The notes under the pieces: model-generated
Database searches by the model: none
What the model saw: only the letters and a program-made list of their open reading frames with translations
Told to the model about the DNA's origin: nothing
Part shown: positions 290-48,461 of the stretch, one piece after another
Position numbering within the stretch: the first letter of the stretch is position 1
Layout of the letters: each line of letters opens with the position of its first letter
Program-made: the position numbers and the translations under genes
Source: a virus
Taxonomy: Duplodnaviria > Heunggongvirae > Uroviricota > Caudoviricetes
DNA length: 64,000 bases
Strand: one strand, 5' to 3'
Virus record (IMG/VR): IMGVR_UViG_3300035517_000267
Coordinates: 67,521 to 131,520 of that record

Positions 290-577
290 TTATTCCTCCT
301 CCGTGAAAGCCCAGGTTTCTCCATAATCTGAGAAACGATAAATGTTAATATCTGGACCAGGAGATCCCCAAACGAAGAAAAAACAATTTTCATTTGCGCC
401 TAATTTAAGTTTTTCTTTGCTAATTTCGACTACTTTATCGAGCTTTTTAACTCCATTACCATAGTTGAGGTATCTTTGACCAAACATAAAGCCAAAGATA
501 GACCTCGTTGCATTAGAGTAATATTTCTCAAGTATTTGTTGTTTAGTCATCTTCACTTTCTCCTTTTGCCCTTTCAC
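290..577 (-). CDS. hypothetical protein
   Basis: ORF of 95 aa; its stop overlaps the start of the downstream kinase gene. Confidence 0.4.
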   Translation of the reverse strand: MKGQKEKVKMTKQQILEKYYSNATRSIFGFMFGQRYLNYGNGVKKLDKVVEISKEKLKLGANENCFFFVWGSPGPDINIYRFSDYGETWAFTEEE

Positions 578-6439: not shown

Positions 6440-6476
6440 TCTAATAATATTATACCATATTTTTCTCTATATAGCA
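6440..6476 (-). promoter_or_regulatory. conserved phage promoter (minus strand): extended -10 TATGGTATAAT
   Basis: One of at least 15 copies of the motif. Plus strand reads ...tatatattata(c/t)cata(t)ttttat...aaaaagtaaaaag; minus strand reads TTTACT-17 nt-TGnTATAAT-ATATATAGAAA. Confidence 0.6.
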
Positions 6477-6479
6477 AGC

Positions 6480-7676
6480 TTACTTGAGAACCAGGGTAAG
6501 CTTTTTAGTGGCACGAGTTACAGCTGTATAGAGCCATCGACGATGTTCTTCTTTGTCGTAAGGAAAAGATTCTTCGATAACTAAGACCTTATCCCATTGG
6601 GATCCCTGTGCTCGATGAGTAGTGATAGCATAACCATAATTAAACTCTATAGGAAGGGGCGGATTTTTGCTGCCCTTTCCCGCGTAGGTAATCATATATT
6701 CTTCTTGCGGAGTAAAAGTTTTTGTTCCAGTACAAAGAGCTTTATAATCAATAGGAACATTATAAATCATATCACCAGAGCTTGTTATTAAATCAGTTAC
6801 AAGAACTTCTGCTTTAAATCTTTTATGCAATTTTTTATTTACATATATTCTATTTTCCAGCCGCATAGTATCAATAGTGCAAATAGAACCATTAACCAGA
6901 GGGTCTTGTTTTTCTTGAGAGACTAAATCCCAATTATTTTTTAAACAAATGATTTTCTCTCCAATTACTGGATTATTTGCGGGATAGCCCTTTTCCGCAC
7001 GAACAAAATTATTTATTGCGATACGAGTTTTATTAGTAGCAGTAAGTATTTCGTCTGCCCAGTTATACATTCCAGTTACCAAATCTTGAGAACGTACAAT
7101 TTGAGTGTCATTGCCACGGAAAGGGGTAATTACTTTTCCTTCTCTAATATTCATGCTTGTAACAATAATATCGCTTTCTTTTGCTTGCCGCATTACTTCA
7201 TCAAGAAAAATGTGCGGATTGTCGAGTATGTGGTTGTCATCTTTCTTGTTTATTGGTGGTAATTGAGCAGGATCTCCGAGCGCGATAACATGAACACCAT
7301 GGCTTAAAAGTAAATTCCACATCTGTTTAGGTAGCATTGATACTTCATCCACGATTACTAGTGCAGGACAGTCGTCTAAATATTCTTTAGGATAAAAGCT
7401 ATAAGTTCCATCTTTATTTTGTTTAGCTTTATAAAGTATTTTATGAGCCGTTTTAGCGTTGGGATTCCCTTTTTCTCTTAATACCTCGGCTGCTTTGCCT
7501 GTATAAGCAAGGTAGATTACATCTTCTGGATCAAGCCCTAAAGCTGCAATAATAAAGGTTACTAGAGTCGACTTTCCACTTCCTGCGTAGCCACTAATCA
7601 CGGTATAGAGTTCTCCACGCTTATATCGTTCGACTGCAATTTTAAGCCCTTCGGCTTGCTTGTCTGTAAGAACCAT
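6480..7676 (-). CDS. SF1 DNA helicase, Dda/RecD-like
   Basis: GYAGSGKST (Walker A), VIVDEVSML, GDPAQLPPI and YAITTHRAQGSQWDKVLV motifs. Confidence 0.8.
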   Translation of the reverse strand: MVLTDKQAEGLKIAVERYKRGELYTVISGYAGSGKSTLVTFIIAALGLDPEDVIYLAYTGKAAEVLREKGNPNAKTAHKILYKAKQNKDGTYSFYPKEYLDDCPALVIVDEVSMLPKQMWNLLLSHGVHVIALGDPAQLPPINKKDDNHILDNPHIFLDEVMRQAKESDIIVTSMNIREGKVITPFRGNDTQIVRSQDLVTGMYNWADEILTATNKTRIAINNFVRAEKGYPANNPVIGEKIICLKNNWDLVSQEKQDPLVNGSICTIDTMRLENRIYVNKKLHKRFKAEVLVTDLITSSGDMIYNVPIDYKALCTGTKTFTPQEEYMITYAGKGSKNPPLPIEFNYGYAITTHRAQGSQWDKVLVIEESFPYDKEEHRRWLYTAVTRATKKLTLVLK

Positions 7677-12031: not shown

Positions 12032-12720
12032 GGAGCATCACCATCATCTACAATTACGCGTGTATCCTCTATAGGTACCATTTCTAGTCGCCAGTTAGTA
12101 CAAAATTGCGGTTCTATTCTACAAGTTCCCAAATTTGCGGAACAAAAAAGATAAACTCCCTTATATGCCCCACGACGATTCTTATATATAGATAGTTTGA
12201 TTTTAGGCACTTTAAGATTGGGATTTGCGGCAAGAATTGGAGCGAGTTTTTCAAGGTCTTGAGGAGTAACTTCCAAGAGTATCATCCCCGTGTCAACTCT
12301 GTCTGCGATGCTTTTCGCTCCTCTCAAGAGATTTTGGTCTGGAGTTTCGCTATCTTTATAGTCGGTATTAAGCTGTGTACCCGTCAAAATAAAAACTCCA
12401 TATTGATTAGCTATATCTTTTAACCTAGCAGACAACATAAAAAGTATATTATCTTCTCGAAGCTTGACTCCGCCAGAACGCTTGGATATTTCTTCGAGTA
12501 TCTTGAGTGATGTGTGTATATAATCGAACATATTCCTCCTATGTTTCCATAGGTACTGACTATCTCTTACTTGACAAAATGCCAAGGATACCTTTTCGAG
12601 CCACGTACCAATAGTAGCCCTACTCCGCCGATCCGCGGATAGTCGATACAGGTTAAATTTGGACTTGTTTCCAAGTTTTTCCTCGACAAATATCTCCAAT
12701 TGTAGATTTGCAAATACCAT
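12022..12720 (-). CDS. dnaB: replicative DNA helicase DnaB-like, 3' exon
   Basis: MFDYIHTSLKILEEISKRSGG... ILTGTQLN matches the DnaB IDYLQL...ALSQLNR region. The true exon begins near 12530; the upstream in-frame part of the ORF is intron sequence. Confidence 0.7.
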   Translation of the reverse strand: MVFANLQLEIFVEEKLGNKSKFNLYRLSADRRSRATIGTWLEKVSLAFCQVRDSQYLWKHRRNMFDYIHTSLKILEEISKRSGGVKLREDNILFMLSARLKDIANQYGVFILTGTQLNTDYKDSETPDQNLLRGAKSIADRVDTGMILLEVTPQDLEKLAPILAANPNLKVPKIKLSIYKNRRGAYKGVYLFCSANLGTCRIEPQFCTNWRLEMVPIEDTRVIVDDGDAPWD

Positions 12721-13526
12721 ATTTGTCGATTAATTGTTGGTATGTGAATCCATTTTTTCTATCTATTTTAATTGCACGAACAATTTCTTCATTTAATTTG
12801 GTATGTCTATTTTTCTCAGTAAATACTTCTGGCATAATTGTTTTATATCTAGAGCCAGTCCAAATATTTAGAAAAGAATTATAGTGCATTTTTCCTTCAT
12901 ATAATTCTTTGTAAATCTTACTTGGACTTTCATGCCTAGCATAAGCTTTTCTAAGAAAAATAACCTCATCTTCCGATAATGAAGCGTGAGCTTTCATAAG
13001 CTTTTCTTTTTGTTCCTCTTTCATTGGTTTAGAAGCATTTAATCCACCAGACTCAATATTATATCCATTTGGAATCTAAGTTTTTAAATTAGCAATATAA
13101 TATATTTCTAGTCCATTTAATTCTTCTATTGTTTCGGCTTCTGCTAAAATTTCATATTTAAAATTTTCATAGCCATATTTTCGGAAAGCTCTATGAAGCG
13201 GAGAATTATACTCAGGGTCTTTTTCATTAAAAGCCGTACTTTTATGAGCATTATATCTTTGTCTTGGGTTAATTGTTTGACCCACATATTTTTTCCCATT
13301 AATTAAATTAGTATAACAATAAATGATTCCCATAAAGTAATCATCCTTTCTTTAAAATTATTTCCATTAATATATGAAAATAATCAAAGGTGTTTTGATT
13401 ACTTTTGTCCAAAATTTTTTCCCACGGGATTACCATGCCATTTGGTTTAGGTTTCCCCGTTAGCTAGAATCAAAACTATTCTAACCCCAGTGGTAACTGG
13501 AAAGGTATTACACAGCCCTCGGTTTT
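12541..13526 (-). mobile_element. group I intron in dnaB, carrying a GIY-YIG homing endonuclease
   Basis: DnaB N-terminal and C-terminal halves are separated by about 1 kb. The 3' intron segment at 12538-12660 shares near-identical core blocks with the dnaE intron: cctatgtttccataggtactgactatctcttact, agccctactcc and ggatagtcgatac. Confidence 0.7.
12653..13333 (-). CDS. GIY-YIG homing endonuclease, intron-encoded, with one in-frame TAG
   Basis: The 13076-13333 ORF (GIIYCYTNLINGKKYVGQT) and the 12653-13024 ORF (IPNGYNIESGG... KTWKQV) are in one frame joined by a TAG at 13076-13078. Together they give the complete GIY-YIG plus NUMOD-like architecture seen in the first endonuclease. Confidence 0.65.
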
Positions 13527-14567
13527 TCACTGAGCAATGTAGCGAACATCATGCTCTCTGATGTTCTTCTTTATAATATTTTCTACGTCTTGGAGAGAAA
13601 AGTCGGGCAACGTCTCAACCCAAAGGGGGCTACGAGACAAGATTTCCGCAGCTTTTTTAATTCTTTCTTCTTCTCCTTCAAGATATTGACCATTTAAGAT
13701 ATGTTCTTCATTTACATTTGATAAAAATGCAAGCATCATTGTTTGAATCTCAGTTAAATCTTGTTCAACAGCAATAAAAAGAGTAGGCTGTGCGCTTCCA
13801 TTTCTTATCCAACCAAACTGGTCATGATAAATCTCATTACACGCAAAATTGCAAGCATCGGCAATCATTGAACGTGTTTTGCCAACTCCAGTTGCCGCTG
13901 ACCTAAGATACATTTTGCCAAGTCTTGCTCCGCGAGTTACTGTGTTAATGAGGGGTCCATACATCGGAATACCAATCTCAGGATTCTTCTTTAAATCTTC
14001 AATAAGTCCCAAAATACCATCTCCCGCCTGGTAGCCATCACCTAAGTCATCATTAACATATTTTGTTTTTATTTCATCTATTCTATTATCAATATCTTGG
14101 GCAATAGATGTAATAGAAGTTTTATCAAGCCAATCTTCTTGCTCTTGTTTTTTGTTTGTATTGATAATATTTTCTGGGTCATAAAGATAACTTACATCAA
14201 GCCCATAGTTTGCATAAGCTCTTAGCAAGCTAAATTTTTTCATGCGCATATAATAATAATTAAAGGTTTCTTTCTTAGAAACTTGAGAAGCTTCTGCAAG
14301 ATATTCAACGCCTTTATTCTTATTAAAAATCGCTTCATATTTAGGTCTATTGGCGAGATAATCTATAATAGACTCTATGTTTACCTTACTCCCAGTAAGA
14401 TGTATATTGTAAATTGCTCCAAAAGTTATTTTATGAAAATTTTCAGTAAAATCATCTTCATGTATAACATATTTATCTGTATCATCAAGTATAGAAGAAT
14501 CGTTAAAAACACATCCAATAACCTGCGTTATGGCGGCAAGGTCTATATAACTATTAGGATTAACCAC
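13527..14567 (-). CDS. dnaB: replicative DNA helicase DnaB-like, 5' exon
   Basis: DnaB N-terminal domain followed by Walker A GVGKT. Confidence 0.7.
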   Translation of the reverse strand: MVNPNSYIDLAAITQVIGCVFNDSSILDDTDKYVIHEDDFTENFHKITFGAIYNIHLTGSKVNIESIIDYLANRPKYEAIFNKNKGVEYLAEASQVSKKETFNYYYMRMKKFSLLRAYANYGLDVSYLYDPENIINTNKKQEQEDWLDKTSITSIAQDIDNRIDEIKTKYVNDDLGDGYQAGDGILGLIEDLKKNPEIGIPMYGPLINTVTRGARLGKMYLRSAATGVGKTRSMIADACNFACNEIYHDQFGWIRNGSAQPTLFIAVEQDLTEIQTMMLAFLSNVNEEHILNGQYLEGEEERIKKAAEILSRSPLWVETLPDFSLQDVENIIKKNIREHDVRYIAQ

Positions 14568-15084
14568 TTACATCTTCCTCCTTGTCCAAAAAATCAAAAA
14601 GATTTTTAAAACGCCTTACTGGTTTTCTTCCACTTGCTTTAATGTGTATTTCTCGTGCGGGAAGCACATAATCTTGAAGCTCAATATTTTCATTTTTCTG
14701 CTGTGCTTCCCATATACCATGCCAGTAGGCATATGCTTCCTCGTACACATATGGCGTTATACCAATTCCACCATTCGACTTCTCAAGGTCATTTCCGCAC
14801 ACATCATAAAAATATTTTAGAGTTTTTAAAATTCCTGAATAAGTATATTTTTTATCTTTCACATAGGTATTTATCTGTCTATCAATTTTTTCTGAGATAC
14901 AATTAATTCTAAATAAGTCCTTAATATAATTTTCTAGTTCTTTCTTATCTTTATCCTCTTGGGTTTCTAGAGATTCCGCACAAGAAGCATGAGCATAACG
15001 ATTACTTCTTGGCTTTACATAGGGTTCTTCGTCAGGATTAAACATCTCATTACAATAAAGACATTTAACGAGCCTTTTTGCCAC
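14560..15084 (-). CDS. hypothetical zinc-ribbon protein
   Basis: N-terminal CLYCNEMF...HASCAES zinc ribbon. Confidence 0.4.
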   Translation of the reverse strand: MAKRLVKCLYCNEMFNPDEEPYVKPRSNRYAHASCAESLETQEDKDKKELENYIKDLFRINCISEKIDRQINTYVKDKKYTYSGILKTLKYFYDVCGNDLEKSNGGIGITPYVYEEAYAYWHGIWEAQQKNENIELQDYVLPAREIHIKASGRKPVRRFKNLFDFLDKEEDVSG

Positions 15085-15108
15085 TACTTCTCACTCCTTC
15101 CCTAAAGT

Positions 15109-15143
15109 TTATATAAATATTATATCACATTTTAATAAAAAAA
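15109..15143 (-). promoter_or_regulatory. conserved promoter copy
   Basis: Plus strand tatataaatattatatcacattttaataaaaaaag, next to a terminator hairpin. Confidence 0.55.
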
Positions 15144-15172
15144 GCAAGAGAGGGAGATTTCTCTCCCTCTCA
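15144..15172 (-). terminator. rho-independent terminator
   Basis: agagagggagatttctctccctct hairpin. Confidence 0.55.
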
Positions 15173-15178
15173 TCTTCT

Positions 15179-15736
15179 TTAACCCTTTATAAGTTCTTCC
15201 AAGTCTGTAGCAATCAAGTCCATAAGCTCAGCTTGCTCGGGGGTACAATCGCTAACTTTTCGCCCCTTACCAAGATAACGCTCAATAATTGAGGTAATCT
15301 TAGCTGCGTTAGACTGATTTGCACTCATAAGATCTCCAATAAGATTCTGAATCTTTTCAGCAAGAGCCTGATAATCATATTCTTTTGGAGCTGCAAACTC
15401 AGCTCTTTCTGTAGTAATATACTTTCCATTTGTTGCTTTTGCTTCTGCATCAATTGCGGCATTAAGAGCATTAACAAGTGCATTATAAGAAAAATCTATT
15501 TCAGGAGCGATATATTTAAATCTACAGCCACAACGAACACTATTATCCTCAGACCTAAGTGTAAGAACAGGCTTATAGGTTCCATCAGGCATAGCTTTTG
15601 GATGAGCATAGGCTATTATATCACTCATATTTTCTATTATCGAAAGCGCAGAACTCTGCATAGAAGAACCAATCTGTTGATATTCAGTGCCATTCTGAGG
15701 TTTAATTGTTTTTTCTTTATCGTGACTTATAAACAC
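15179..15736 (-). CDS. probable 3' exon of an AAA_24/Sak4-like recombination ATPase
   Basis: RecA-fold continuation (DIIAYAHPK...) downstream of the P-loop ORF at 16927-17292, separated by a LAGLIDADG-containing insert. Confidence 0.4.
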   Translation of the reverse strand: MFISHDKEKTIKPQNGTEYQQIGSSMQSSALSIIENMSDIIAYAHPKAMPDGTYKPVLTLRSEDNSVRCGCRFKYIAPEIDFSYNALVNALNAAIDAEAKATNGKYITTERAEFAAPKEYDYQALAEKIQNLIGDLMSANQSNAAKITSIIERYLGKGRKVSDCTPEQAELMDLIATDLEELIKG

Positions 15737-16926
15737 AACAGCATATCCCAGCTGAGTTAAAGTCCTAAAAGTTTCCTCGAATTCCTTTTTATATTTTGCC
15801 CCAATAATGTTATCCTAAAGGCTTTTTATCCTCTAGTTCTTACGCTTACTTATTCGCGTAAGTTCAGCATAGCTTTTATCCCCAACACTTGGGGATTGTA
15901 GTCTCGTGGAGAACTATATCAATTAAAGTTTTTTATATCTATAATCTTTTGATATTTTTCTTTCTTTCTTGCCAGGAATAAAGAGTTATCGGTATATAAA
16001 TGCTTAAAGATTTCTTTAGAAGCATTTGTCGAATATTGTAAGATATATAATGTAGAAGTATTACGTTGAAAAGAGTGAACATTTACTTTTGGAATATCAT
16101 ATTCCTCATAAAAAAAGTCTACAATCCATTCAAGAATTTCTTTAGTTGCAGATGTAATCTGCCAACTCAAAGTATTATAATTATTAGAAAGAAGAGTTAT
16201 ACTCCCATCGCCATCAAAAAAACCTCTAATATAATCAATCCAATATTTTCTATCTAAGCTTAATGGTGGCTTTAGCTTAAAGGTTTTTTGTGGAATCACG
16301 CCATACTTGGCTAAATCTTTTTTATGTTGTTCGCTTGACCATTGAATTTTGCTAACTTGATAACCAGCTTGAGTAATATAATCTTTAACTTCGGACTTCA
16401 AACCAATTTCTTGACGAATCTTTTCAAGAATCTCTCTATCTACTGTACTCAAACTAAGTTTAACTACATTCCTATCTTTCTCAATGCTACCATCGGCAGC
16501 CAAAAAACCAACAAGCCAAGCCATATTATGATTTTCTTCGCTAAAATAATTCTGCTTTTCTAGCAGATTTCTGCCTTTATTCGCAGCTACAATAGCTTCA
16601 TGTCGATTTCTTAATTTATAACCATTCTTTTCTAAGACTTCTTTGAGTTGAGGCAAAGTTATTTTTGCAGCAGCCATTACTGCCGCTTGCCCTCTCCCAT
16701 TTTCAATATACTCCTTTAGAACAATTTTCTCTTGCTCTTCCGTAAATGAGTTTTTTGTATTCACACTGAACACACTCCTTAAAACTAAAACTTTAATTGT
16801 TTAATTTCTCTATGCGTTGCGCGTGTTAAAGCTTTTAGACTTTAACTTCCGCTCTGGTTAGCATTTCAGCTTTCCAGGTTTTTACTACAATTTTGATATG
16901 AATTACTTCATAAAAGACCAAGCATT
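15737..16926 (-). mobile_element. putative group I intron with a LAGLIDADG homing endonuclease inside the Sak4-like ATPase gene
   Basis: A Walker A/B N-terminal half and a C-terminal half are separated by 1.2 kb holding a double-motif LAGLIDADG ORF. The flanks contain GC-rich hairpins and an AGACUA element. Confidence 0.45.
15919..16773 (-). CDS. LAGLIDADG homing endonuclease (double-motif)
   Basis: LVGFLAADGS and IRGFFDGDGS motifs. Confidence 0.8.
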   Translation of the reverse strand: MFSVNTKNSFTEEQEKIVLKEYIENGRGQAAVMAAAKITLPQLKEVLEKNGYKLRNRHEAIVAANKGRNLLEKQNYFSEENHNMAWLVGFLAADGSIEKDRNVVKLSLSTVDREILEKIRQEIGLKSEVKDYITQAGYQVSKIQWSSEQHKKDLAKYGVIPQKTFKLKPPLSLDRKYWIDYIRGFFDGDGSITLLSNNYNTLSWQITSATKEILEWIVDFFYEEYDIPKVNVHSFQRNTSTLYILQYSTNASKEIFKHLYTDNSLFLARKKEKYQKIIDIKNFN

Positions 16927-29539: not shown

Positions 29540-30799
29540 TCACCCTCTCATTAGTTCGGCACGCTCGGCAATCCTAGATCTATGACATTGCTTAAGCGTT
29601 ACTTCACCATAATAGCTTTGACCTCTAAATACTTTAGAAGCCTTAATTAATCCATTATTATTGTTTTTATAAACATCTAGATCAACTTGAGTGCGGTCAT
29701 CGCCTTCTATGATACAAATACAATTCTCTCCAATTCGTTGAAGAATAAGTTGCATTGTATCAATTGTAGTATTCTGAGCTTCCGTTACATAAACGCCAGC
29801 TCTAACATTTATATCCATTCCTCTACAATCAGAGACGGGAATCAGTTCAATTTTTCCTTCGTTAATTAATCTTTCAATAGCTTCAATTCCACCAAACTTT
29901 CCTACGAGGAAATTGCCAATTTGTGAATCAAGCAGTTTCGTATTTTTATCACCCGGATAAAATCCGAGCTTAACTGAGTCTCTAGTTGCTACAGGGTTGC
30001 AAAAAATTATAATTTTATCAATACGATTTTTCTCAAGTTGTTGAACGAGATAAGCCATGGCTATATATGACTTTCCACTTCCAGCTTTTCCACGAATAAT
30101 TGTGAATTGGTTATTAGATAAGCTATCAAACAAAAGCTTCTGATAAGGGTCATTCTTATAAGGCTTAACCTTCCCAAACCAGTTTGAATTAAAGTCCTCA
30201 TAATCAAGGTAATCATGACTACTACCTGACCATTTCCGCAAATCCAATATTTCACCATCAATACTTCGCAATATTAAATACTCACCTATCAAGAGGTTAA
30301 AGTGATTATAATTTATATCTTGGTAAAATTTGGTAAGAACCTCATCATTTGCATATATCTCTTTATAACCTGTATATTCATCATTATTTTGTGCGGCTTC
30401 TTCTATCATCCCATCTCCGAAAAACAGCTATGCAATATTCGCTAAAGAAAAATCATTAGTAACAAATATTACTTTATCAGGATGAATAAAATTATTCGCA
30501 TAAATGGCATCGCTTAATATCCTTGTATCATCTGTTATCGTGAGAAACTTTTCTCGAATGGTATTTTCCATATTTTCAGTATGAATTATTAAATCATACA
30601 ATTCTATATTTTCTCTAAGCCATTTAAGAATTTGTCTGGCTAAATATTTAGTATCAGAATCTTTTGTAGAAGAAACCTTTATTCTTTCCAATTCATTAAG
30701 CGTAATAGAAGAAATCATTATTTTTTCTTCTGGCATTTGTTCTCCCAAGGCTAAAAGAGCACTTGTGTCATAGAAACGAATGTCATGTTCCATAGTCAT
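29540..30799 (-). CDS. phoH: PIN-PhoH fusion ATPase (YlaK-like) with an in-frame TAG at the domain junction
   Basis: The PIN ORF (30428-30799) ends at TAG 30428-30430 and the PhoH ORF (GKAGSGKS) follows in the same frame six codons later. PIN-PhoH is a known single-polypeptide architecture. Confidence 0.7.
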
Positions 30800-31065
30800 C
30801 TTCCTCGTCCTCTATTATTCTAGTGTTAAAACCTATTACTCGCGTTTCCTCGGTCGAAGATTCTTCGGATAGTTCCTAAATTTCAACTCCATATCGCATT
30901 ATAGTAACGCTCATACGAGTTTTAATAAGTTCAACAAATGTACTAAAGATTTCAACAACACCTTCAATAAAAGTTAATCCGAAAGTGCCTATTAAAAATC
31001 CAAGAAGTAAATAATACAATAAAAATCACCTTCTCTAACTATTATTGAAAATGATTAACTAATAA

Positions 31066-31626: not shown

Positions 31627-32556
31627 TCAACTTCCCAAATCGGGAGTAACCATGAGATTTGTACCATCGCTAACAATGGTAGGAAGTACCCCATCCCACT
31701 TATCAAGCCACTGCTGTGCGATCCAAGTATCAGGCATATTTTCAAGAGCCTGCTGAGTAATTTCAAGAGCTTCCGCTTCGCCCTTAGCTTTTTCAATTGC
31801 AGCCTCTGCCTCGATTGAGGCAACTTCCTTCTCCTGCTCAGCCTGGATTATTGCAGTCTTCTTTTCCTGCTCTGCACGAAGAGCATCCTGTTCTGCGACC
31901 ATCTTAGCTTCAACGCTTGCCTCAAATGCGTCAGAAAAATCAATATCCTGAACTATAACAGATGTAAAGTTAATGTGATACAGATCTTCCAGAGTCTCAA
32001 CCTCATCTGCTACTTCTGCAGACAGACTAGAGCGATTTTCAAGAAGCGTCATGGCGCTATATCTTGCAAATACAATCTTTGCCTTTTCCTGAACGACATT
32101 GGAAAGCTTAGTTTCAAGAATCTCATAAGAACCATATTCTTTAGCAATATCAAGAACATAGTCAGGGTTAATAGCGTACTGGTATTCGATTGCGGCAGTC
32201 ACAGGCTGAGCGTCCATAGTATAAGATGCGAAACTCTCAGAATTAATATGAACTCTCAGGTCATAAGTAGTTACTGTATCGGAAATGGGATTAACAACAT
32301 TAAGACCAGAAGTTATCTCTTTATTAATGTTACCAAAAGTTCTAACAACTCCAATTTCAGTAGAATCAATAATCTGTATTCCACTTGCTATAAAAACAAT
32401 TACAGTTATAAGAATAATGGCGATAATAGCTATCAGCCTAACTGTTCTTACGCCTTTGGTGTTTAAAGCTTCTTTCTCAAGGTATCTAATAACGGAGCCA
32501 AAACCAATAATAATTCCAATAAGAAATATTGCCATGATAACCAAAAATATAATCAT
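31627..32556 (-). CDS. SPFH/band-7 (prohibitin/HflK-like) membrane protein
   Basis: N-terminal transmembrane helix, then an SPFH domain and a C-terminal coiled coil. Confidence 0.65.
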   Translation of the reverse strand: MIIFLVIMAIFLIGIIIGFGSVIRYLEKEALNTKGVRTVRLIAIIAIILITVIVFIASGIQIIDSTEIGVVRTFGNINKEITSGLNVVNPISDTVTTYDLRVHINSESFASYTMDAQPVTAAIEYQYAINPDYVLDIAKEYGSYEILETKLSNVVQEKAKIVFARYSAMTLLENRSSLSAEVADEVETLEDLYHINFTSVIVQDIDFSDAFEASVEAKMVAEQDALRAEQEKKTAIIQAEQEKEVASIEAEAAIEKAKGEAEALEITQQALENMPDTWIAQQWLDKWDGVLPTIVSDGTNLMVTPDLGS

Positions 32557-33116
32557 TTAATATACTCCTTTATATCTTCTATAATTTTTTCTATATGAAC
32601 AGGATAGCAATTATGACTATCCGTTTCAACGTGATAAGATAGAATATTCTGTTTAATTAGTTCGTATTTATCTTTTGTGTGCGAATGCCCGCATATATTT
32701 ATAACCTTAGCTTTTAGTGGTTTAAGTTCATCATAATTAGAAGTAATGGTAGGGAAATGAGAAAGATAAAGATGATACTTTTTATAGACTAGCATAGTAG
32801 ACCACCCAAGAATTTCTTCTACATTATTACAGCTTTCATACATGGCTAGTCGTTGCGAGGTATCATGGTTTCCGCAAATTATATGGAGTTTTCCATTCAT
32901 AGATTCAATTAGTTCTTTATTTGCGGCAAGTGCCTCTTCATTCCCTCCACCAAGACACAAATCTCCTAATACATACACATCATCTTCTGGAAGAACTAGA
33001 GAATTATGTCTTGTAATAATTGCTTCATTCATTTGTTGTATATTATCAAAACCTCGGGATTCCCAGATAAAAGGGCGATCGTGACTAAAATGCCAATCAG
33101 AGGTGAGCCATACCAT
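32553..33116 (-). CDS. calcineurin-like metallophosphoesterase (end-healing phosphatase candidate)
   Basis: SDWHFSH, LGDLC, GNHD and CGHSH metal-binding motifs. Confidence 0.7.
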   Translation of the reverse strand: MVWLTSDWHFSHDRPFIWESRGFDNIQQMNEAIITRHNSLVLPEDDVYVLGDLCLGGGNEEALAANKELIESMNGKLHIICGNHDTSQRLAMYESCNNVEEILGWSTMLVYKKYHLYLSHFPTITSNYDELKPLKAKVINICGHSHTKDKYELIKQNILSYHVETDSHNCYPVHIEKIIEDIKEYIK

Positions 33117-33118
33117 GC

Positions 33119-33604
33119 TTATTCACTTCCTTTTACTTCAATAATTTTATTATATTTATATTTTTCATATTTAGATGCAGGACAAAAATTTTGTTTCATT
33201 TTATACATTATTTTATCGGGTACTTTTTCTCGTCCTTTTCTTTTAGCATTACGCTCAAAACAAATGTTAAAGGGAGTTAAGAAATTAACTGCATATATCT
33301 CAACATCTTTAAGATTCAATTTATCAAGAACTTTATTGCGACTGTATTCATTAATATGAGTAGCATCAATATAAGTATTCTCATTGGTAATAATAGATTT
33401 ATTAATCTGACGAATGAACTCTTTAAAAACAGCATCTTCTTTAGAAAAATATTCTTCATCTTCATTTACCATGCTGAATCGAACAGCATCGCGAGAAACA
33501 CAATAGCCATTTTGTTTAGCTACCCAGCTGCTTTTACCCGATGCCGGAATCCCGCACAAAAGCCAAATCTTTTTCTGCTTCATCTTTATATACTCCGTCC
33601 GCAA
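33119..33604 (-). CDS. P-loop polynucleotide kinase-like protein
   Basis: LLCGIPASGKSSW Walker A; size and motifs resemble the kinase domains of bacterial Pnkp and T4 Pnk. Confidence 0.55.
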   Translation of the reverse strand: MRTEYIKMKQKKIWLLCGIPASGKSSWVAKQNGYCVSRDAVRFSMVNEDEEYFSKEDAVFKEFIRQINKSIITNENTYIDATHINEYSRNKVLDKLNLKDVEIYAVNFLTPFNICFERNAKRKGREKVPDKIMYKMKQNFCPASKYEKYKYNKIIEVKGSE

Positions 33605-33815
33605 AATCTTTCTGAAATTCTTCTACTTCTTCAGGTGTTATACATTCAATATGGTTAATTACTTGTTTGCAAGATGGACAGTAAAGTCTTTTTCGATGAA
33701 ACTTTTCGTGCAGGTGTCCAGGACTTCGCAGCACAGGGATTCCTTGATTACCACAATAAATACAATAAAAATTATGTTTTATATAATAATTATTTTTGCT
33801 GTGACGTCGTCTCAC
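33534..33815 (-). CDS. hypothetical zinc-finger protein
   Basis: Cys/His-rich; overlaps the 3' end of the upstream gene in another frame. Confidence 0.3.
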   Translation of the reverse strand: MRRRHSKNNYYIKHNFYCIYCGNQGIPVLRSPGHLHEKFHRKRLYCPSCKQVINHIECITPEEVEEFQKDFADGVYKDEAEKDLAFVRDSGIG

Positions 33816-33896
33816 TGTTCTTCTTCCTTTATTAACTTCTTCTCTTGACGGAAAAATTTTTATGAATTAAAATATTAATATAAATTAAATTTCTTC

Positions 33897-34214
33897 CTAA
33901 ACTCCTATATATTCAACAATAAACCAATTCATTATGTCCCAAAGACGATAACCATTCCAGTGGCACCATCCGTTGGTGCTATCAAGCTGTTCAAAATATC
34001 TTCCAGTTTTACGATCTTCAAAACGTAGCCACACATAATATTCCATTCCAGAGCCATCTTCATAATAAGCAGCTTGTGGACAATTTACTTGATGAATATA
34101 AAAACGCCCTTTCCACAAATTATCATTCTCAATGTTTTTATTAATTTTCTTAACATAAGAATTTATTTTGCGCTGATGTTTTTTTCTATTCCTTGAATAA
34201 ACCCAATTATCCAT
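33897..34214 (-). CDS. hypothetical protein
   Basis: 105-aa ORF, no recognisable motif. Confidence 0.4.
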   Translation of the reverse strand: MDNWVYSRNRKKHQRKINSYVKKINKNIENDNLWKGRFYIHQVNCPQAAYYEDGSGMEYYVWLRFEDRKTGRYFEQLDSTNGWCHWNGYRLWDIMNWFIVEYIGV

Positions 34215-34240
34215 GACTCATATCTCCTTTTCTTTATCTT

Positions 34241-34281
34241 TTATATATACATTATATCATATTTTAAGAAAAAAGTAAAAA
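34241..34281 (-). promoter_or_regulatory. conserved promoter copy
   Basis: Plus strand tatatatacattatatcatattttaagaaaaaagtaaaaag. Confidence 0.6.
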
Positions 34282-34300
34282 GGGTGGTAAAAACCACCCT
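34282..34300 (-). terminator. rho-independent terminator
   Basis: gggtggtaaaaaccaccc hairpin with a T-run. Confidence 0.6.
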
Positions 34301-34302
34301 TC

Positions 34303-35193
34303 TTATTCTTCAACATACCTTATATAGCAATCATAGCCTAAATTTGCAAGGTCTTCGGCAACTTTTTGCGCGTTCTCTTTTACTGAGAAAAATCCAACTT
34401 GAACCCTATAGCCCTTCTTCTCGTCATCATATGTAATGAAAGCAGATTCATACGAAAATCCATTAATACCAGATTTAAGACTTTTAATAACTGCAAGATA
34501 GCGCTGAGCATTTTCTTTTTTAGAAAAAAATCCAAGTTGACAGCGATAACCAATTTTTAGCTTTTTTGTCCAAACGGCACAAACAGTATCTACAGATCTT
34601 TCCCATCCGGCATCTGTTATTCTAATACTATCAACATAGGCTGCGACACTTCCGCCGCCATCCATGTTAAGAGCATATTGACAATCAGGAAACTGCTCCA
34701 AAATAACAGTTTGCACAGTTGAGAAAGAAGCTCCGTTACCTTCAATAGTAATGTTAAAAAGAGTATCAGCAGTCCAACCCCAAATATTACGATGTGCGGC
34801 GCCGCTTATTTCACTAGCAGTTTTAATAATGCACTTATTTCCATCTGCTATAAGAGTGGGATAAGAAGAAATATAATGTTTCCAAGCATGATCTGTTGCA
34901 GACCCATAAGCTATTTCTCCATCTGTTGTAATACCCCAACCATCTATATTAGTTGCATCGGAGCTATAGACAACTCCATTAGAAATAACATTAAAAATAC
35001 TATCTCCACTAGATGTGTTGAAGAAGCCTAAGTTTGTAAGAACATTAGGCTTAGTCTCATAAGTGTCCAGCATTTTATTAGGCGCAAGCTTCGGCTGAGT
35101 ACATATATCAAATGAGATATTAGTAATTTCCTTTTTGGGTATTTTAATTACCTGTATTTTCATTCCATTCTGAGTAAAAGATTCATAATTCAT
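34303..35193 (-). CDS. phosphodiester-glycosidase (NAGPA)-like domain protein with two C-terminal SPOR peptidoglycan-binding repeats
   Basis: ALNMDGGGS motif; two repeats of (C/R)QLGFFSKKENAQR... / RVQVGFFSVKENAQK... typical of SPOR domains. Confidence 0.55.
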   Translation of the reverse strand: MNYESFTQNGMKIQVIKIPKKEITNISFDICTQPKLAPNKMLDTYETKPNVLTNLGFFNTSSGDSIFNVISNGVVYSSDATNIDGWGITTDGEIAYGSATDHAWKHYISSYPTLIADGNKCIIKTASEISGAAHRNIWGWTADTLFNITIEGNGASFSTVQTVILEQFPDCQYALNMDGGGSVAAYVDSIRITDAGWERSVDTVCAVWTKKLKIGYRCQLGFFSKKENAQRYLAVIKSLKSGINGFSYESAFITYDDEKKGYRVQVGFFSVKENAQKVAEDLANLGYDCYIRYVEE

Positions 35194-36266
35194 GTGTTAA
35201 ATTCTCCTTCTTTCAAATGTAAAGTTTTTATAAAAGATGCTGTAGTCATTTTTTCAAAGTAGTCGTCTGCATGATCAAAAACATATAGCAAATAATGTGC
35301 TACTTCAGGAGGATAATAAGAGAGAACCTTAATTGCATAATCTTTTTTATTAAGGCAATAAGAACCCATTTCTACCTCTGCCCGCATACAAGCTCTTACA
35401 AGACGAGAGAGCCTATCTTTTATCATATCTATTTTTTCTTGATATTCAGGAGCATAAGTCAAGAATTCGTCCTCTTCACCTTGCCGCACTATTTCAACAA
35501 GAGTAGACAATGAAACAGCTCCGTTGGCTCTTGAATAATGCGCCTTTACATACGCAACAGATTTTACTTTTATACGATTGGTGCCATCGGACACCACAAA
35601 TCCTTCTTTTGTCCAAGGGAAAGTTGAAGCTTTATCTACAATTTCTTTAAGATTAGCAAAGCTGTAACTAGCTGGAGCTTCTATAGGAAGAGGATAATTG
35701 ACATACATTCCATTTTCCTTATTTCGTGCAGCTAAATAATAAATTTTTGTTTCGTCATAAGGAATCACTACACGATTATAGGGTGACACAAGCTCAAACA
35801 TATAGGTATATTTACAATCCAGCATTTGATAAAATTCATTCTTAGAAAAACCAAGGGCTTCCATAAAAAGGTCATAAAAAGTTTTATCAAAATTTCCTAC
35901 TTCTGCTTTTCTTGCATCAATAGTGCCATTGGTTGATATATGCCAACCGTCATGGTACCATACTTTTATCAAGCTTCCATCTATCTTCTCGGTAATCTCT
36001 ACATTATTCCAATTAACAGCTGCGGCATAAGGTTCTCCATAGTTGAAAAATTTATCAAAAGGACGACAAACTATATCCCAAGTGGGTTCATAAAATATAA
36101 TTCCTCGTGCTTCTCTAACGAGCGAATAGGCAAAATCAGAATCAGGCTGAGAATATTTAAAGAGTATATAATTATTATATCTACTAATTTTTAGATTATA
36201 AGGTGCATGAGTAAGCTCTTCTTCCCAATTTTCATGCGAAAGAATATAATTTTTCAATTCACTCAT
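35190..36266 (-). CDS. RNA ligase (Rnl-family nucleotidyltransferase)
   Basis: KxDG motif ITEKIDGSLIKVWY; the N-terminal region resembles T4 Rnl-type ligases. Confidence 0.6.
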   Translation of the reverse strand: MSELKNYILSHENWEEELTHAPYNLKISRYNNYILFKYSQPDSDFAYSLVREARGIIFYEPTWDIVCRPFDKFFNYGEPYAAAVNWNNVEITEKIDGSLIKVWYHDGWHISTNGTIDARKAEVGNFDKTFYDLFMEALGFSKNEFYQMLDCKYTYMFELVSPYNRVVIPYDETKIYYLAARNKENGMYVNYPLPIEAPASYSFANLKEIVDKASTFPWTKEGFVVSDGTNRIKVKSVAYVKAHYSRANGAVSLSTLVEIVRQGEEDEFLTYAPEYQEKIDMIKDRLSRLVRACMRAEVEMGSYCLNKKDYAIKVLSYYPPEVAHYLLYVFDHADDYFEKMTTASFIKTLHLKEGEFNT

Positions 36267-39258: not shown

Positions 39259-39417
39259 ATCTTACCTCCTAGGGTATGGCGGCGGGGGACGGTACTGACC
39301 CGTCTTCCAAGCTTTTAGAGAGCCTTGCATTACCTTTATGCTACCCCGCATTTTCTAATTCTATTATACAGGAAAAATTTCATAAAGTCAAAAAAAAGAG
39401 AGGGTTTATTCCCTCTC

Positions 39418-46686: not shown

Positions 46687-46986
46687 TTACTTACCTTTAT
46701 AATATTTATACCATTCTCTATATAGTTTTTCTTTATCGGGAAAAGGAACATTATATTGCCACATCCACTCGTGCCAATGGCGTACTTGACTTGCATAATA
46801 TTCTTCAAAAGATGTTCCTACCACTTGATAATCGCATATATCATACGTCATAAAATTTTTGCGGTAAGCGTTATGTTGTAGCTCGTTATCAAGCTTATTT
46901 CGTCTTAATTTGCGGTTTGCATATTTCTTGTAGGCTCGATCTTTGCGCATTCCCGCACGAGGGGTTTTTTTATAAGAGCGACTCAT
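46687..46986 (-). CDS. highly basic small protein
   Basis: Lys/Arg-rich N-terminus; terminator hairpin and an AAGGAGGTAAGATAATG ribosome-binding site upstream. Confidence 0.4.
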   Translation of the reverse strand: MSRSYKKTPRAGMRKDRAYKKYANRKLRRNKLDNELQHNAYRKNFMTYDICDYQVVGTSFEEYYASQVRHWHEWMWQYNVPFPDKEKLYREWYKYYKGK

Positions 46987-47088
46987 TATCTTACCTCCTT
47001 AATAAAAAAGGCGGAGCATAAGCCCCGCCCATAACGTAATAGCACAATAAAACACATATGAATCAAGCAACTGCGAGCTAAACTCGCT

Positions 47089-47269
47089 TGGTAGTCGGTA
47101 CGGGATTCGAACCCGTGACTTCAGCGTTGGAACTAAAAATAAGATTTGAACTTACATCTTTGACCACTCTTCGTCTGAATAAAATCTTATTTCAAATTCA
47201 AAAAGTCAATATTTTTCTTTAAACTATTTTAGCGAAAGGCTGATGACTTAACCTCTTGTCGAACCGACC
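47089..47269 (-). tRNA. tRNA-Glu (UUC) gene interrupted in the anticodon loop by a 106-nt tRNA-like insert (47128-47233)
   Basis: 5' half GGTCGGTTCGACAAGAGGTTAAGTCATCAGC-CTTTC, and 3' half AC-GCTGAAGTCACGGGTTCGAATCCCGTACCGACTACCA. Acceptor (7 bp), D arm, anticodon stem TCAGC/GCTGA, a 4-nt variable loop, canonical T loop TTCGAAT and CCA are all present. The predicted spliced loop CTTTCAC reads UUC. Confidence 0.55.
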
Positions 47270-47687
47270 ATATATAGCTTTTGTTTTAAAAGGAAGCTAT
47301 AAGAAACCTTTGTGATAAGAACCAGAGACTTATCACCCTCACATTTACCCCTGCGATTTTCCCTAGGACTGGGGGATCTTTCCTTTCAGCTTTTTACCCA
47401 GAACTCGAAAGAAAGATATAAATACAAACTGGCTATATTGTTTATAGACTACTAGAAGTCTTAAGATTTTTTGGCTAAATCTTATAACCGTCGCCTTAAG
47501 TAGGTCAAAGCTACAAAAAACCTGTTTTAAAGAGTTTTCTTTCTCCATTAGAGTGAATGACACTATAGATAATTCCCTACAATCTAGATATAATAATTTC
47601 TTTTAATCGAGAAAGAATTAATAAGAAAGAATAACTACAATATTGTAAGTACGTTCCCATTGTTTAAATCCTAGAACGCCAAGGATT

Positions 47688-47774
47688 TGGTGCGAGCGGC
47701 GGGACTCGAACCCGCACGTCCTTGTGGACACGAGATTTTAAGTCTCGGGTGTCTACCACTTCCACCACGCTCGC
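47688..47774 (-). tRNA. tRNA-Leu (UAA), type II
   Basis: GCGAGCGTGGTGGAAGTGGTAGACACCCGAGACTTAAAATCTCGTGTCCACAAGGACGTGCGGGTTCGAGTCCCGCCGCTCGCACCA; anticodon loop CTTAAAA; long variable arm; CCA encoded. Confidence 0.8.
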
Positions 47775-48387
47775 TTATATTTTATGAAAGACCCCTTCGG
47801 GTTGCTATCTGTTCAATCGTAGCTATATTCAGTCAATAGGGAGACAAGAGTGTGCCTAGAGGAGCTACCTCTAAACAGCTTGCCCCAGCTTAGAGCCAAG
47901 TCCCATGGGAGATTGGTTACTCCCAACTTTCACCCACCATTCACATCTTGTATCTGTTAAAACCATTAACATAAAAATTTGATGTAATCTTGGCAGACCA
48001 TTTGGGCTACTCGTACTGTGACCTTATCTTATACACCGATTTCTCGGCTTCAACTGCCAAGTTCCTTAGTGACATTCCAAGGTTTGCAAAAACTGTCACA
48101 TTTTTACCTAACTTGGATTCTTCTCCACAGGAGCGTCTATTGCGGAACCGATAAGACCATACTTTTAACTGCGATTGTGATAGTGCCTTTCTTCCTACAG
48201 AGCTAAAGTTCTTTAGCCTCAACCCAACCTCACGAATTGAGCCGATACAAGATTGCTAGGGTATCCTCTAGTACCTTGCTACTTACGGAAGAAGCCTCAG
48301 CACAATGGCGTTTGTCTACACTGAGTTCTTTCATAATATTTTGTCATTCTTATTTATGTATAGATGGAGAATAACAAAACCACCTTT

Positions 48388-48461
48388 GGCAGTCCCTACT
48401 CGTGACGATCGAGTACCCTCTGATTCAAAGTCAGATGTGCAGTCCGCTACACCAAGGGACT
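48388..48461 (-). tRNA. tRNA-Gln (UUG)
   Basis: AGTCCCTTGGTGTAGCGGACTGCACATCTGACTTTGAATCAGAGGGTACTCGATCGTCACGAGTAGGGACTGCCA. Perfect 7-bp acceptor, anticodon loop CTTTGAA, CCA encoded; the T loop ATCGTCA is non-canonical. Confidence 0.6.

Follow-up and report, generated by a model that had tools for sequence, protein, structure and literature searches.

Can a transfer RNA (tRNA) gene that is broken in its anticodon loop by what looks like a second, complete tRNA still give rise to a working product, and if so, by the action of which enzymes? The question is raised by a 181-nucleotide (nt) locus on the minus strand of a Caudoviricetes phage (IMG/VR record IMGVR_UViG_3300035517_000267), at positions 47089 to 47269 of the 64,000-nt stretch that we analyzed, which covers positions 67,521 to 131,520 of the record and is called the window here. 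We find that the locus is a genuine phage tRNA-Glu(UUC) gene with one complete tRNA-shaped unit between nt 36 and 37 of the tRNA. This architecture is real and recurrent and, as far as we have found, undescribed; full-text literature searches returned no description of a tRNA nested in the anticodon loop of another tRNA. Our tentative interpretation, to which we grant somewhat less than an even chance, is that some phage tRNA genes have another tRNA as their intron, which the universal tRNA end-processing enzymes cut out before a phage repair ligase rejoins the exons.

Two halves of one tRNA-Glu(UUC) gene

The 5′ exon of the outer tRNA (nt 1 to 36; 47234..47269, 36 nt) reads GGTCGGT-T-C-GAC-AAGAGGTTAA-GTC-A-TCAGC-CTTTC on the minus strand and supplies the 5′ strand of the acceptor stem, U8, the D arm, the 5′ strand of the anticodon stem (TCAGC), and loop nucleotides C32, U33, U34, U35, and C36. 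The 3′ exon (47089..47127, 39 nt, minus strand) reads AC-GCTGA-AGTC-ACGGG-TTCGAAT-CCCGT-ACCGACT-A-CCA, that is, A37 and C38, the anticodon stem strand GCTGA, the variable loop AGTC, the T arm ACGGG-TTCGAAT-CCCGT, the acceptor strand ACCGACT, A73, and CCA; it also gives a weak, separate half-match to the Rfam tRNA model at 47100-47121. Both exons were read directly from the sequence, and they bear out the canonical tRNA-Glu halves claimed in a preliminary description of this DNA that had been made without database searches. When the exons are joined, ARAGORN reports a 75-nt tRNA-Glu(ttc), which qualifies as a member of that class: 20 of 20 stem pairs are formed (acceptor, 7; D, 3; anticodon, 5; T, 5), the sole wobble pair being G1.U72, and the GC content of the outer halves is 53%. 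With default settings, ARAGORN makes no call at the locus for either the outer or the inner unit, and with its intron option it returns the same outer frame (47089-47269). An ARAGORN prediction of a tRNA-Leu(caa) with an 89-nt intron at the locus was rejected as an artifact of the intron model.

A search for the predicted spliced junction (CAGCCUUUC|ACGCUGAAG; longer junction sequence, CATCAGCCTTTCACGCTGAAGTC) retrieved an intact tRNA-Glu from IMG/VR contig L070, whose anticodon loop is CCTTTCACG. The joined tRNA-Glu is 96.4% identical to this orthologue over 55 nt crossing the junction (E 2e-23), and in the aligned stems and loops the two are set apart by one compensatory pair (C4-G69 versus G4-C69), by an indel in the D loop, and by the replacement of one purine with another (G to A) in the T loop. 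Furthermore, 17 GenBank phage records match at least 80% of the joined tRNA-Glu, those listed being mostly annotated as tRNA-Glu, and GenBank phage tRNA-Glu genes align over the junction at ~80% identity. Because of the match to L070 over the junction and the 17 GenBank records, we regard the halves as one gene, beyond chance. The native loop according to the orthologues is CTTTC|AC, and the junction of L070 is restored by one excision only, that of exactly 47233-47128, which is where the preliminary description had placed a 106-nt tRNA-like insert between loop positions 36 and 37.

The locus is not a split or permuted tRNA gene, as its halves are collinear, 106 nt apart, on one strand, and in one operon. 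It shares with the split tRNAs of Nanoarchaeum and the permuted tRNAs of Cyanidioschyzon (PMC3978253) the assembly of a tRNA from noncontiguous segments; it differs from them in having both halves in order on one transcript with a tRNA unit between them, and not leaders flanked by bulge-helix-bulge (BHB) motifs.

The intervening unit is tRNA-shaped but has no decoding loop

The intervening unit (47128..47233, minus strand, 106 nt) runs exactly from +1 (G) to CCA76. It contains a 7-bp acceptor stem (47233-47227 / 47138-47132; GCTAAAA/TTTTAGT), an equivalent of the anticodon stem (47209-47205 / 47164-47160; UUGAC/GUCAA) that encloses a 40-nt irregular hairpin (47204-47165), a T arm (47155-47139; GTAAG-TTCAAAT-CTTAT), a discriminator U at 47131, and CCA at 47130-47128, to which the Rfam alignment adds U8-A9, a D arm (GUUU/AAAU), and a variable loop (AGAU). 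The acceptor stem, T arm, and CCA noticed in the preliminary description thus stood up to comparison with a covariance model: positions 47131-47233 match the Rfam tRNA model RF00005 at 40.5 bits, above the gathering score of 29 (window-wide E 4.1e-5), a score similar to those of the suppressor tRNA (41.4 bits) and the tRNA-Gln (46.6 bits) of the same phage. High posterior probabilities mark the alignment of the acceptor, D, and T arms and the CCA to the model; the anticodon loop alone is aberrant, with 36 nt in place of the model's 3 and hence a "loop" of 40 nt, the normal length being 7. Because of this loop, we consider the unit tRNA-like but not an ordinary decoding tRNA, and plain ARAGORN makes no call for it. 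Judged by the sequence and the Rfam alignment, the unit has the features of an RNase P or RNase Z substrate, namely, a 7-bp acceptor on a T stem-loop, G+1, and U73-CCA. The GC content of the unit is 24.5%. When the cloverleaf is enforced, the 40-nt stretch becomes an irregular hairpin with a GAUU cap, and the cloverleaf with this extended arm has a free energy of −11.8 kcal/mol versus −14.6 kcal/mol for the minimum-free-energy (MFE) fold. An attempt to assign the unit to an isoacceptor found no close relative among 67 distinct tRNAs of related loci.

We asked whether the insert could instead be a self-splicing or self-cleaving RNA, such as a mini group I intron or a small ribozyme. This would suit a genome that is rich in mobile elements and has homing-endonuclease open reading frames (ORFs) beside and between pieces of its replication genes, yet we hold it to be very improbable. 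The group I core consists of conserved elements P3-P9 and usually exceeds 200 nt, so that 106 nt is too short for it, as had already been remarked in the preliminary description, and no intron or ribozyme family of Rfam 15 matched positions 46950-47450 even at E<=10, the tRNA model explaining the sequence instead. A group I intron was rejected on these grounds. The group I introns described from anticodon loops of bacterial and phage tRNAs (cyanobacterial tRNA-Leu(UAA), Azoarcus tRNA-Ile, and Patescibacteria; PMC3984707, PMC13011429) do resemble the locus in the site of the insert, in polymorphism between relatives, and in a genome rich in mobile introns. In contrast to them, the locus has neither a ribozyme core nor an Rfam intron match, and a 106-nt tRNA-shaped insert ending in CCA would need proteins or RNase P for its removal.

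An intron of the BHB type was also rejected. In a BHB, both splice sites lie in 3-nt bulges with a 4-bp helix between them. Here, by contrast, the outer anticodon stem and the inner acceptor stem are separated by a 5-by-6-nt internal loop that contains the junctions, with CUUUC as its 5′ strand and UCCA+AC as its 3′ strand, and the inner arm has a 3-by-4-nt internal loop without staggered bulges.

A second nested gene in unrelated phages

A scan of IMG/VR for two T loops ~40 nt apart, followed by deletion of each predicted tRNA and rescanning of the joined flanks, led to a second nested gene, which is an independent case of the same design. In unrelated, uncultivated phage contigs, a canonical tRNA-Phe(GAA) of 76 nt lies between nt 34 and 35 of a tRNA-Arg(UCU) (L117:4972-5124; L334:2025-2177; and L331, in which the gene is cut by the end of the locus). 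In L117, the 5′ part of the outer tRNA-Arg (4972-5006) ends in CTT, the inner tRNA-Phe(GAA) occupies 5007-5082 (72.4 bits), and the 3′ part of the outer tRNA (5083-5124) begins with CTAA-GCCGT and ends in GCCA. Removal of exactly those 76 nt yields a tRNA-Arg(tct) according to ARAGORN, with the loop CTTCTAA (predicted spliced junction in this lineage, AACGGCCTTCTAAGCCGTCGGCC). We place the break between nt 34 and 35 because CTTCTAA is also the loop of 14 intact phage tRNA-Arg genes that share its D arm and anticodon stem. Between L334 and L117, a single base differs in 4,775 nt, and it is the last nucleotide of the inner unit: the inner 3′ end is ACCA in L334, making the unit exactly nt 1-76, and ACCC in L117 and L331.

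The 12-tRNA array of L117 holds no other Arg or Phe gene, so that tRNA-Arg(UCU) and tRNA-Phe are found there only as the nested pair, and the array is flanked by an AAA_33+HD kinase/phosphohydrolase, an RlaP nucleotidyltransferase, and two PD-(D/E)XK endonucleases. The inner tRNA-Phe looks fully functional. If it is, its release would need RNase P and 3′ processing, and the outer tRNA would be severed as a consequence.

The second gene also bears on the excision boundaries. The preliminary description had pointed out that other boundaries in the tRNA-Glu gene would give anticodon loops with UCA or UUA, that is, suppressors of stop codons. The arithmetic holds, as CTT+CAAC and CTTT+AAC can indeed be assembled from the sequence, and the phage does appear to recode a stop; the comparative evidence goes the other way, and such products seem to us scarcely credible. 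The stop that this phage appears to read as a sense codon is TAG: an in-frame TAG at 30428-30430 falls within a PIN_4+PhoH protein that is continuous across it, another at 13076-13078 is spanned by a GIY-YIG domain, and only 6 of the 54 long minus-strand reading frames end in TAG. This codon is served by a tRNA of its own with the suppressor anticodon CUA (39277-39350, minus strand), and in-frame TGA occurs only between plainly different genes (RecJ/tail lysozyme and PhoH/amidase). Furthermore, the loops of the orthologues are CTTTCAC and CTTCTAA, and the gene in L334 is restored only via excision of exactly nt 1-76.

An RNA operon and RNA-repair genes in the same phage

The nested gene is the final element of a minus-strand RNA operon with the order tRNA-Gln / ROOL / tRNA-Leu / 418-nt spacer / nested tRNA-Glu. 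The likely start of the operon, going by consensus matches alone, lies at two sigma-70-like promoter matches upstream of tRNA-Gln (48646-48618 and 48557-48529, minus strand; TTGAAA-17-TATAAT, 11/12 each). They are followed on the same strand by tRNA-Gln(UUG) (48387-48461), a full-length ROOL RNA (47772-48349; 322 bits), and tRNA-Leu(UAA) (47688-47774), both tRNAs encoding CCA. A predicted intrinsic terminator ~60 nt past the outer CCA closes the operon (47009..47030, minus strand; GGGCGGGGC-TTAT-GCTCCGCCT and then a T run; 9-bp stem with 7 GC pairs).

Several details of the operon can be recorded beside this. The ROOL RNA, between tRNA-Gln and tRNA-Leu, overlaps the start of tRNA-Leu by ~3 nt, and the order ROOL to tRNA-Leu is also found in the related phage contig L068. 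The 418-nt spacer (47270-47687, minus strand) contains no convincing gene, only one short GTG-start ORF (66 aa), and nothing in Rfam matches it; just before the +1 of the outer tRNA there is a hairpin (ATAGCTT...AAGCTAT).

The window also encodes enzymes of RNA repair. A 358-aa RNA ligase of the T4 Rnl1 family (35190..36266, minus strand) matches PF09511 (E 1.4e-18) and carries motif I as KIDGSL; over residues 32-282 it matches the T4 Rnl1 structures 2C5U/5TT6 (E 3.6e-14), with KIDGSL aligned to the KEDGSL of T4, and it is thus an Rnl1-fold ligase with a KxDG adenylylation motif. A Pnk-type 5′-kinase (33119-33604, minus strand; Pfam AAA_33, E 4.3e-16) has as its best Protein Data Bank (PDB) matches 4GP7, 4GP6, 4JST, and 4MDE (E 7e-6; database label "Metallophosphoesterase"), which we take to be entries for the kinase domain of Clostridium thermocellum Pnkp, along with T4 polynucleotide kinase 1LY1. 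Adjoining the kinase ORF is a metallophosphoesterase (32553-33116, minus strand; Metallophos, E 1e-6), a putative 3′-end-healing enzyme. The Rnl1-family ligase would be the sealing enzyme for the two exons, and the kinase and phosphoesterase would be needed only if the cuts leave 5′-OH and 2′,3′-cyclic phosphate ends. The repair neighborhood as a whole (31627-36266, minus strand) consists of a Band-7/SPFH protein (31627-32556), the metallophosphoesterase, the Pnk-type kinase, the Rnl1-type ligase, and an NAGPA+SPOR protein, and a PIN-PhoH (PIN_4+PhoH) protein is encoded close to it (29540-30811). Near the tRNA arrays of the related phages L054, L058, and L063, we observed genes for Thg1, MVP-shoulder, RNase T, DUF2828/DUF7788, RlaP, YqeY, and a PF09414 RNA ligase.

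A possible route from nested gene to mature tRNA

The reading that we favor, which falls a little short of being the probable one, is that the insert is a tRNA-shaped intervening sequence, cut by RNase P at +1 and by a second nuclease after the CCA, with the phage ligase resealing the outer tRNA. The 181-nt region would be transcribed as part of the tRNA-Gln / ROOL / tRNA-Leu operon. Host RNase P would then recognize the acceptor, T arm, elbow, discriminator, and CCA of the inner unit and cut at its +1, leaving ...CUUUC-3′OH on the 5′ exon, and an endonucleolytic cut directly past A76, by an RNase Z/BN-type enzyme that cleaves past CCA or by a phage nuclease, would give a 3′ exon beginning 5′-ACGCUGA.... 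The outer acceptor and anticodon stems would hold the exons in register while the Rnl1-type ligase seals them into the 7-nt loop CUUUCAC, after healing by the kinase and phosphoesterase if needed. The inner anticodon arm, ignored by these enzymes, could have degenerated to the 40-nt AT-rich hairpin. The chemistry would fit: RNase P leaves a 3′-OH on the leader, RNase Z leaves a 5′-phosphate on the trailer, and Rnl1 joins such ends directly, T4 Rnl1 being specialized for tRNAs that are broken in the anticodon loop. Thermotoga maritima RNase Z and Escherichia coli RNase BN are able to cut directly past CCA.

Several lines of evidence support this reading. The exact +1-to-CCA76 geometry restores the loop of L070, the design recurs independently in L117/L331/L334, and the outer exons are undamaged, their differences being compensatory. 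The inner unit selectively keeps its processing determinants, and drift of its anticodon arm toward AT while those features are kept is as expected if the unit is maintained only as an excision signal. The phage encodes a ligase, a Pnk-type kinase, and a metallophosphoesterase, and the gene sits in a promoter-to-terminator operon, so that its expression is predicted. Finally, the nested allele is present in six further contigs, whose flanks are 97-100% identical to those of the window, and is not a rare accident. What was observed directly is the layout of the gene and the exact position of its boundaries, a second lineage with the same design, the surrounding operon, and the genes for repair enzymes.

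Parts of such a pathway have parallels in known systems. Embedded tRNA shapes draw RNase P and RNase Z in mascRNA at the 3′ end of MALAT1 (PMC8457004), in mitochondrial tRNA punctuation, and in synthetic tRNA-guide RNA arrays; their flanks stay unjoined, whereas the flanks here are the halves of another tRNA and would require ligation. In the repair of PrrC-cut tRNA-Lys by T4 Pnkp and Rnl1, an Rnl1-family ligase likewise seals a break in an anticodon loop with a Pnk-type kinase alongside, but the break in T4 is inflicted by the host, and here it would be encoded in the gene and made by tRNA-processing enzymes. Archaeal and eukaryal splicing (EndA or Sen acting on a BHB, then Trl1 or RtcB) has in common with the proposed route that the precursor is cut, the tRNA body holds the exons, and the exons are ligated, and the ligase and kinase of the window belong to families found as Trl1 modules. 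The locus differs in having no BHB, in the positions of its breaks (36/37 and 34/35, not 37/38), in that no EndA homologue was found among the window ORFs scanned, and in its bacteriophage setting.

We also considered that a dedicated phage or host endonuclease (for example, the PIN-PhoH protein at 29540-30811 or another PIN-domain or anticodon-nuclease-like enzyme) cuts both junctions to leave 5′-OH and 2′,3′-cyclic phosphate ends, which the kinase and phosphoesterase would heal and Rnl1 would seal, in a fungal-like manner. The clustering of all three heal-and-seal activities at 32553-36266 and the PIN_4+PhoH protein encoded nearby speak for this, as do the facts that T4 Pnkp and Rnl1 can substitute for yeast Trl1 in tRNA splicing and that the PIN-domain VapC toxins cleave tRNA anticodon loops. 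It would leave unexplained, however, why in two unrelated genes the insert has the shape of a tRNA and is bounded by +1 and CCA76; the internal loop (5 by 6 nt) that holds the junctions is not a BHB motif, and the window ORFs scanned include no EndA-like gene (tRNA_int_endo had no match among the 57 ORFs). On balance, a dedicated nuclease seems unlikely.

More improbable still, in our estimation, is that the uncut 181-nt chimera is itself the product, with the outer tRNA as a scaffold for the inner module and the whole serving as a decoy or sponge for anticodon nucleases or tRNA-binding defense proteins. The start of the inner loop, UUUUUGA, resembles the anticodon loop of tRNA-Lys(UUU), and a tRNA-Lys(UUU)-like reading of it is possible, although G37 would be atypical. 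The gene adjoins ROOL, a structured phage RNA of unknown role, and engineered tRNA scaffolds carry RNA in the anticodon arm with a comparable geometry. Against this, the inner acceptor, T arm, and CCA should attract RNase P and make the chimera unstable, the inner unit of L117 is an ordinary tRNA-Phe that would work only once released, and a scaffold has no need for exact +1/CCA76 boundaries.

Variation among related contigs and the fate of the outer tRNA

A 99-aa ORF directly downstream of the nested gene was recorded in nine contigs from JGI and Logan assemblies. In six of the nine, the 181-nt nested gene is 100% identical to that of the window, in surroundings that are 96-100% identical. 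At the same site, contig L046 carries a different, uninterrupted tRNA-Glu(UUC) (3932-4006; 69.2 bits), which differs from the tRNA-Glu of the window by compensatory changes in all four stems. The flanks of L046 are identical up to G1-G2 and again from T72-A73-CCA, with only the tRNA body, nt 3-71, exchanged. Because the flanks are identical up to the edges of the tRNA, we conclude that, as far as the sequences tell, the tRNA body has been swapped as a cassette; boundaries so sharp and so closely fitted to a tRNA are not easy to account for by ordinary homologous recombination. In this small sample, the interrupted allele is the commoner one. We had thought of population conservation as evidence of selection and dropped it, since the adjacent 418-nt spacer, which is 100% conserved in all related contigs, is just as invariant. 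Downstream, the 102 nt that follow the outer CCA and include the terminator region (46987-47088) are hypervariable between strains (34% variable columns), while the 599 nt upstream of this stretch are invariant, which looks like a sharp mosaic boundary at the 3′ end of the tRNA.

An intact allele in a sister strain raises the possibility that the outer tRNA is dead or sacrificed and the insertion a scar, with no rejoining and with only the inner RNA, or nothing useful, being made. The scar could have arisen through an accident of RNA repair, in which a mature tRNA (5′-P ... CCA-3′OH) was ligated into a broken anticodon loop by an Rnl1-type enzyme and the product was later copied to DNA, or by a rearrangement at the DNA level. 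An insert of exactly a mature tRNA, from +1 to CCA, is the expected product of a ligase that misjoins a broken and an uncharged tRNA; this is the form of both nested genes, with the break at 36/37 in one loop and at 34/35 in the other, and RNA-repair enzymes are encoded by both phages. Since the sister strain has an intact tRNA-Glu at this site, the interrupted allele may be a tolerated knockout, on which the population invariance is uninformative, and a tRNA-Leu(UAA) in L068 that carries a 53-nt insert alongside an intact copy is as expected for decaying duplicates.

Other observations fit the scar poorly. We found no reverse transcriptase in the 57 window ORFs that were scanned. In neither lineage do the outer halves carry a damaging change, which argues against long neutrality. 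In the window, they remain perfect at 53% GC, although the inner unit has gained 33 nt and drifted down to 24.5% GC, which is hard to reconcile with both being unselected. In L117, tRNA-Arg(UCU) and tRNA-Phe are present only in nested form within the 12-tRNA array. We regard a dead outer gene as doubtful, though the main rival to splicing. An origin as a scar is compatible with splicing in the present day, and nested genes may have arisen by RNA-ligase insertion of a mature tRNA that was copied to DNA, in which case they would be heritable records of RNA-level recombination.

A number of points weigh against excision of the unit by end-processing enzymes and resealing by the phage ligase. The RNA-level steps, cleavage and splicing, are predictions from the gene sequence. 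The nested allele may be a tolerated loss of function, given that L046 is intact at the same site, and invariance among the contigs carries no sign of selection, variation across the region being patchy. Since the window covers only 64 kb and the genome measures at least 131 kb, a second tRNA-Glu may be encoded elsewhere. The bare cloverleaf of the inner unit has only −3.8 kcal/mol and the MFE fold is not a cloverleaf, the shuffle z-score of the unit is −0.07, and the full nested fold lies 5 kcal/mol above the MFE. No real homologue of the inner unit, from which covariation could be read, was found in IMG/VR, the metagenome collection, or GenBank phages. For the second cut, none of the 57 window ORFs scanned matched the RNase Z, EndA, or RtcB families, and the CCC at the inner 3′ end in L117 and L331 would affect a CCA-dependent cut. 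Furthermore, RNase Z of the Bacillus type is inhibited by CCA, and precursors that encode CCA are usually trimmed by exonucleases, which would leave no precise 5′ end on the 3′ exon.

Searches for further nested genes

Removal and rescanning of 1,929 tRNAs predicted in 3.06 Mb of fetched loci gave no further convincing case, and nested tRNA genes are therefore rare, at least among the matches listed in our collection scans (120 rows). Candidates L165, L167, L180, and L284 were rejected, as they had mismatched acceptor or anticodon stems or borrowed a neighboring tRNA. A scan of the genome collection for two unlike T loops ~40 nt apart returned 21 matches, none of them nested, and BLAST searches of the locus, the inner unit, and the nested gene of L117 against 50,697 GenBank phage records found no nested gene, the inner unit giving AT-rich chance matches only. 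In IMG/VR, the gapped pattern CAGCCTTTC-N(90-120)-ACGCTGAAG had 43 matches, all of them chance matches in coding DNA, and a 24-mer plus 29-mer of the inner unit had none; a 22-mer of the unit had one chance match, in a coding region, in the metagenome collection, which evidently lacks the source samples.

Inserts of other kinds were observed in tRNA genes of L070 and of the related phage L068. The Pro, Ala, and Trp tRNAs of L070 (c[6468-6584], c[4813-4926], and c[3823-3945]) each carry a 32-51-nt insert, best placed at 32/33, and these inserts share a 6-7-bp hairpin (AAGTAAC-NNNN-GTTACTT) followed by CACAA(A/G)AAC, a motif that occurs within IMG/VR in tRNAs of L070 alone. The 33 extra nt of the inner unit in the window have a loosely similar layout, AATAA-GATT-TTATT and then CAGACGAAG. 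In L068, a tRNA-Leu(UAA) directly after ROOL (L068:2201-2340) has a 53-nt insert bounded by a CGGAC direct repeat, which can be placed at 32/33 or between the D and anticodon arms, and elsewhere in this contig (6016-6102) there is a copy of tRNA-Leu(UAA) that is intact. Among the tRNA genes of related phages we also found a RAGATH-33 RNA (140.8 bits; L058:5692-5804) and a partial OLE RNA (54.6 bits, model positions 436-595; L068:7374-7463).

The window and its other genes

The window, which has a GC content of 35%, is part of a large phage genome and encodes DNA polymerase III alpha, gyrase A and B, an NAD-dependent ligase, DnaB, RecJ, and many homing endonucleases. Its four ordinary tRNAs all encode CCA and have GC contents of 51-61%. 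Replication genes are interrupted by homing-endonuclease ORFs at 543-5675 and 12653-16773 (minus strand): DNA polymerase III alpha is spread over two ORFs that are separated by a GIY-YIG ORF, and DnaB is followed by LAGLIDADG and GIY-YIG ORFs. These broken replication genes suggest several introns or inteins.

Implications

To our knowledge, the tRNA introns described in bacteria and phages are self-splicing group I introns only, and the splicing of tRNAs by enzymes is seen as a trait of archaea and eukaryotes. The chance that the locus represents a new splicing route is substantial. If so, the nested genes would define a new class of tRNA intron and would bring protein- and RNase P-dependent tRNA splicing, built from repair parts, to the bacterial world. 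Should the outer gene be dead, inserts running exactly from +1 to CCA would still point to RNA-mediated insertion of sequence in phage genomes. In either case, standard tRNA finders miss nested genes, and because default ARAGORN missed both units here, the tRNA repertoires of phages may be undercounted.

If the outer tRNAs are spliced, maturation of tRNA-Glu(UUC) and tRNA-Arg(UCU) would be tied to phage enzymes. Glu-UUC belongs to the class of wobble-U-modified tRNAs that are attacked by anticodon nucleases, and the interruption could hide the anticodon loop from host nucleases or time the supply of the tRNA. Phage RNA-repair enzymes would then gain a constructive role in gene expression, beyond the reversal of damage inflicted by the host.

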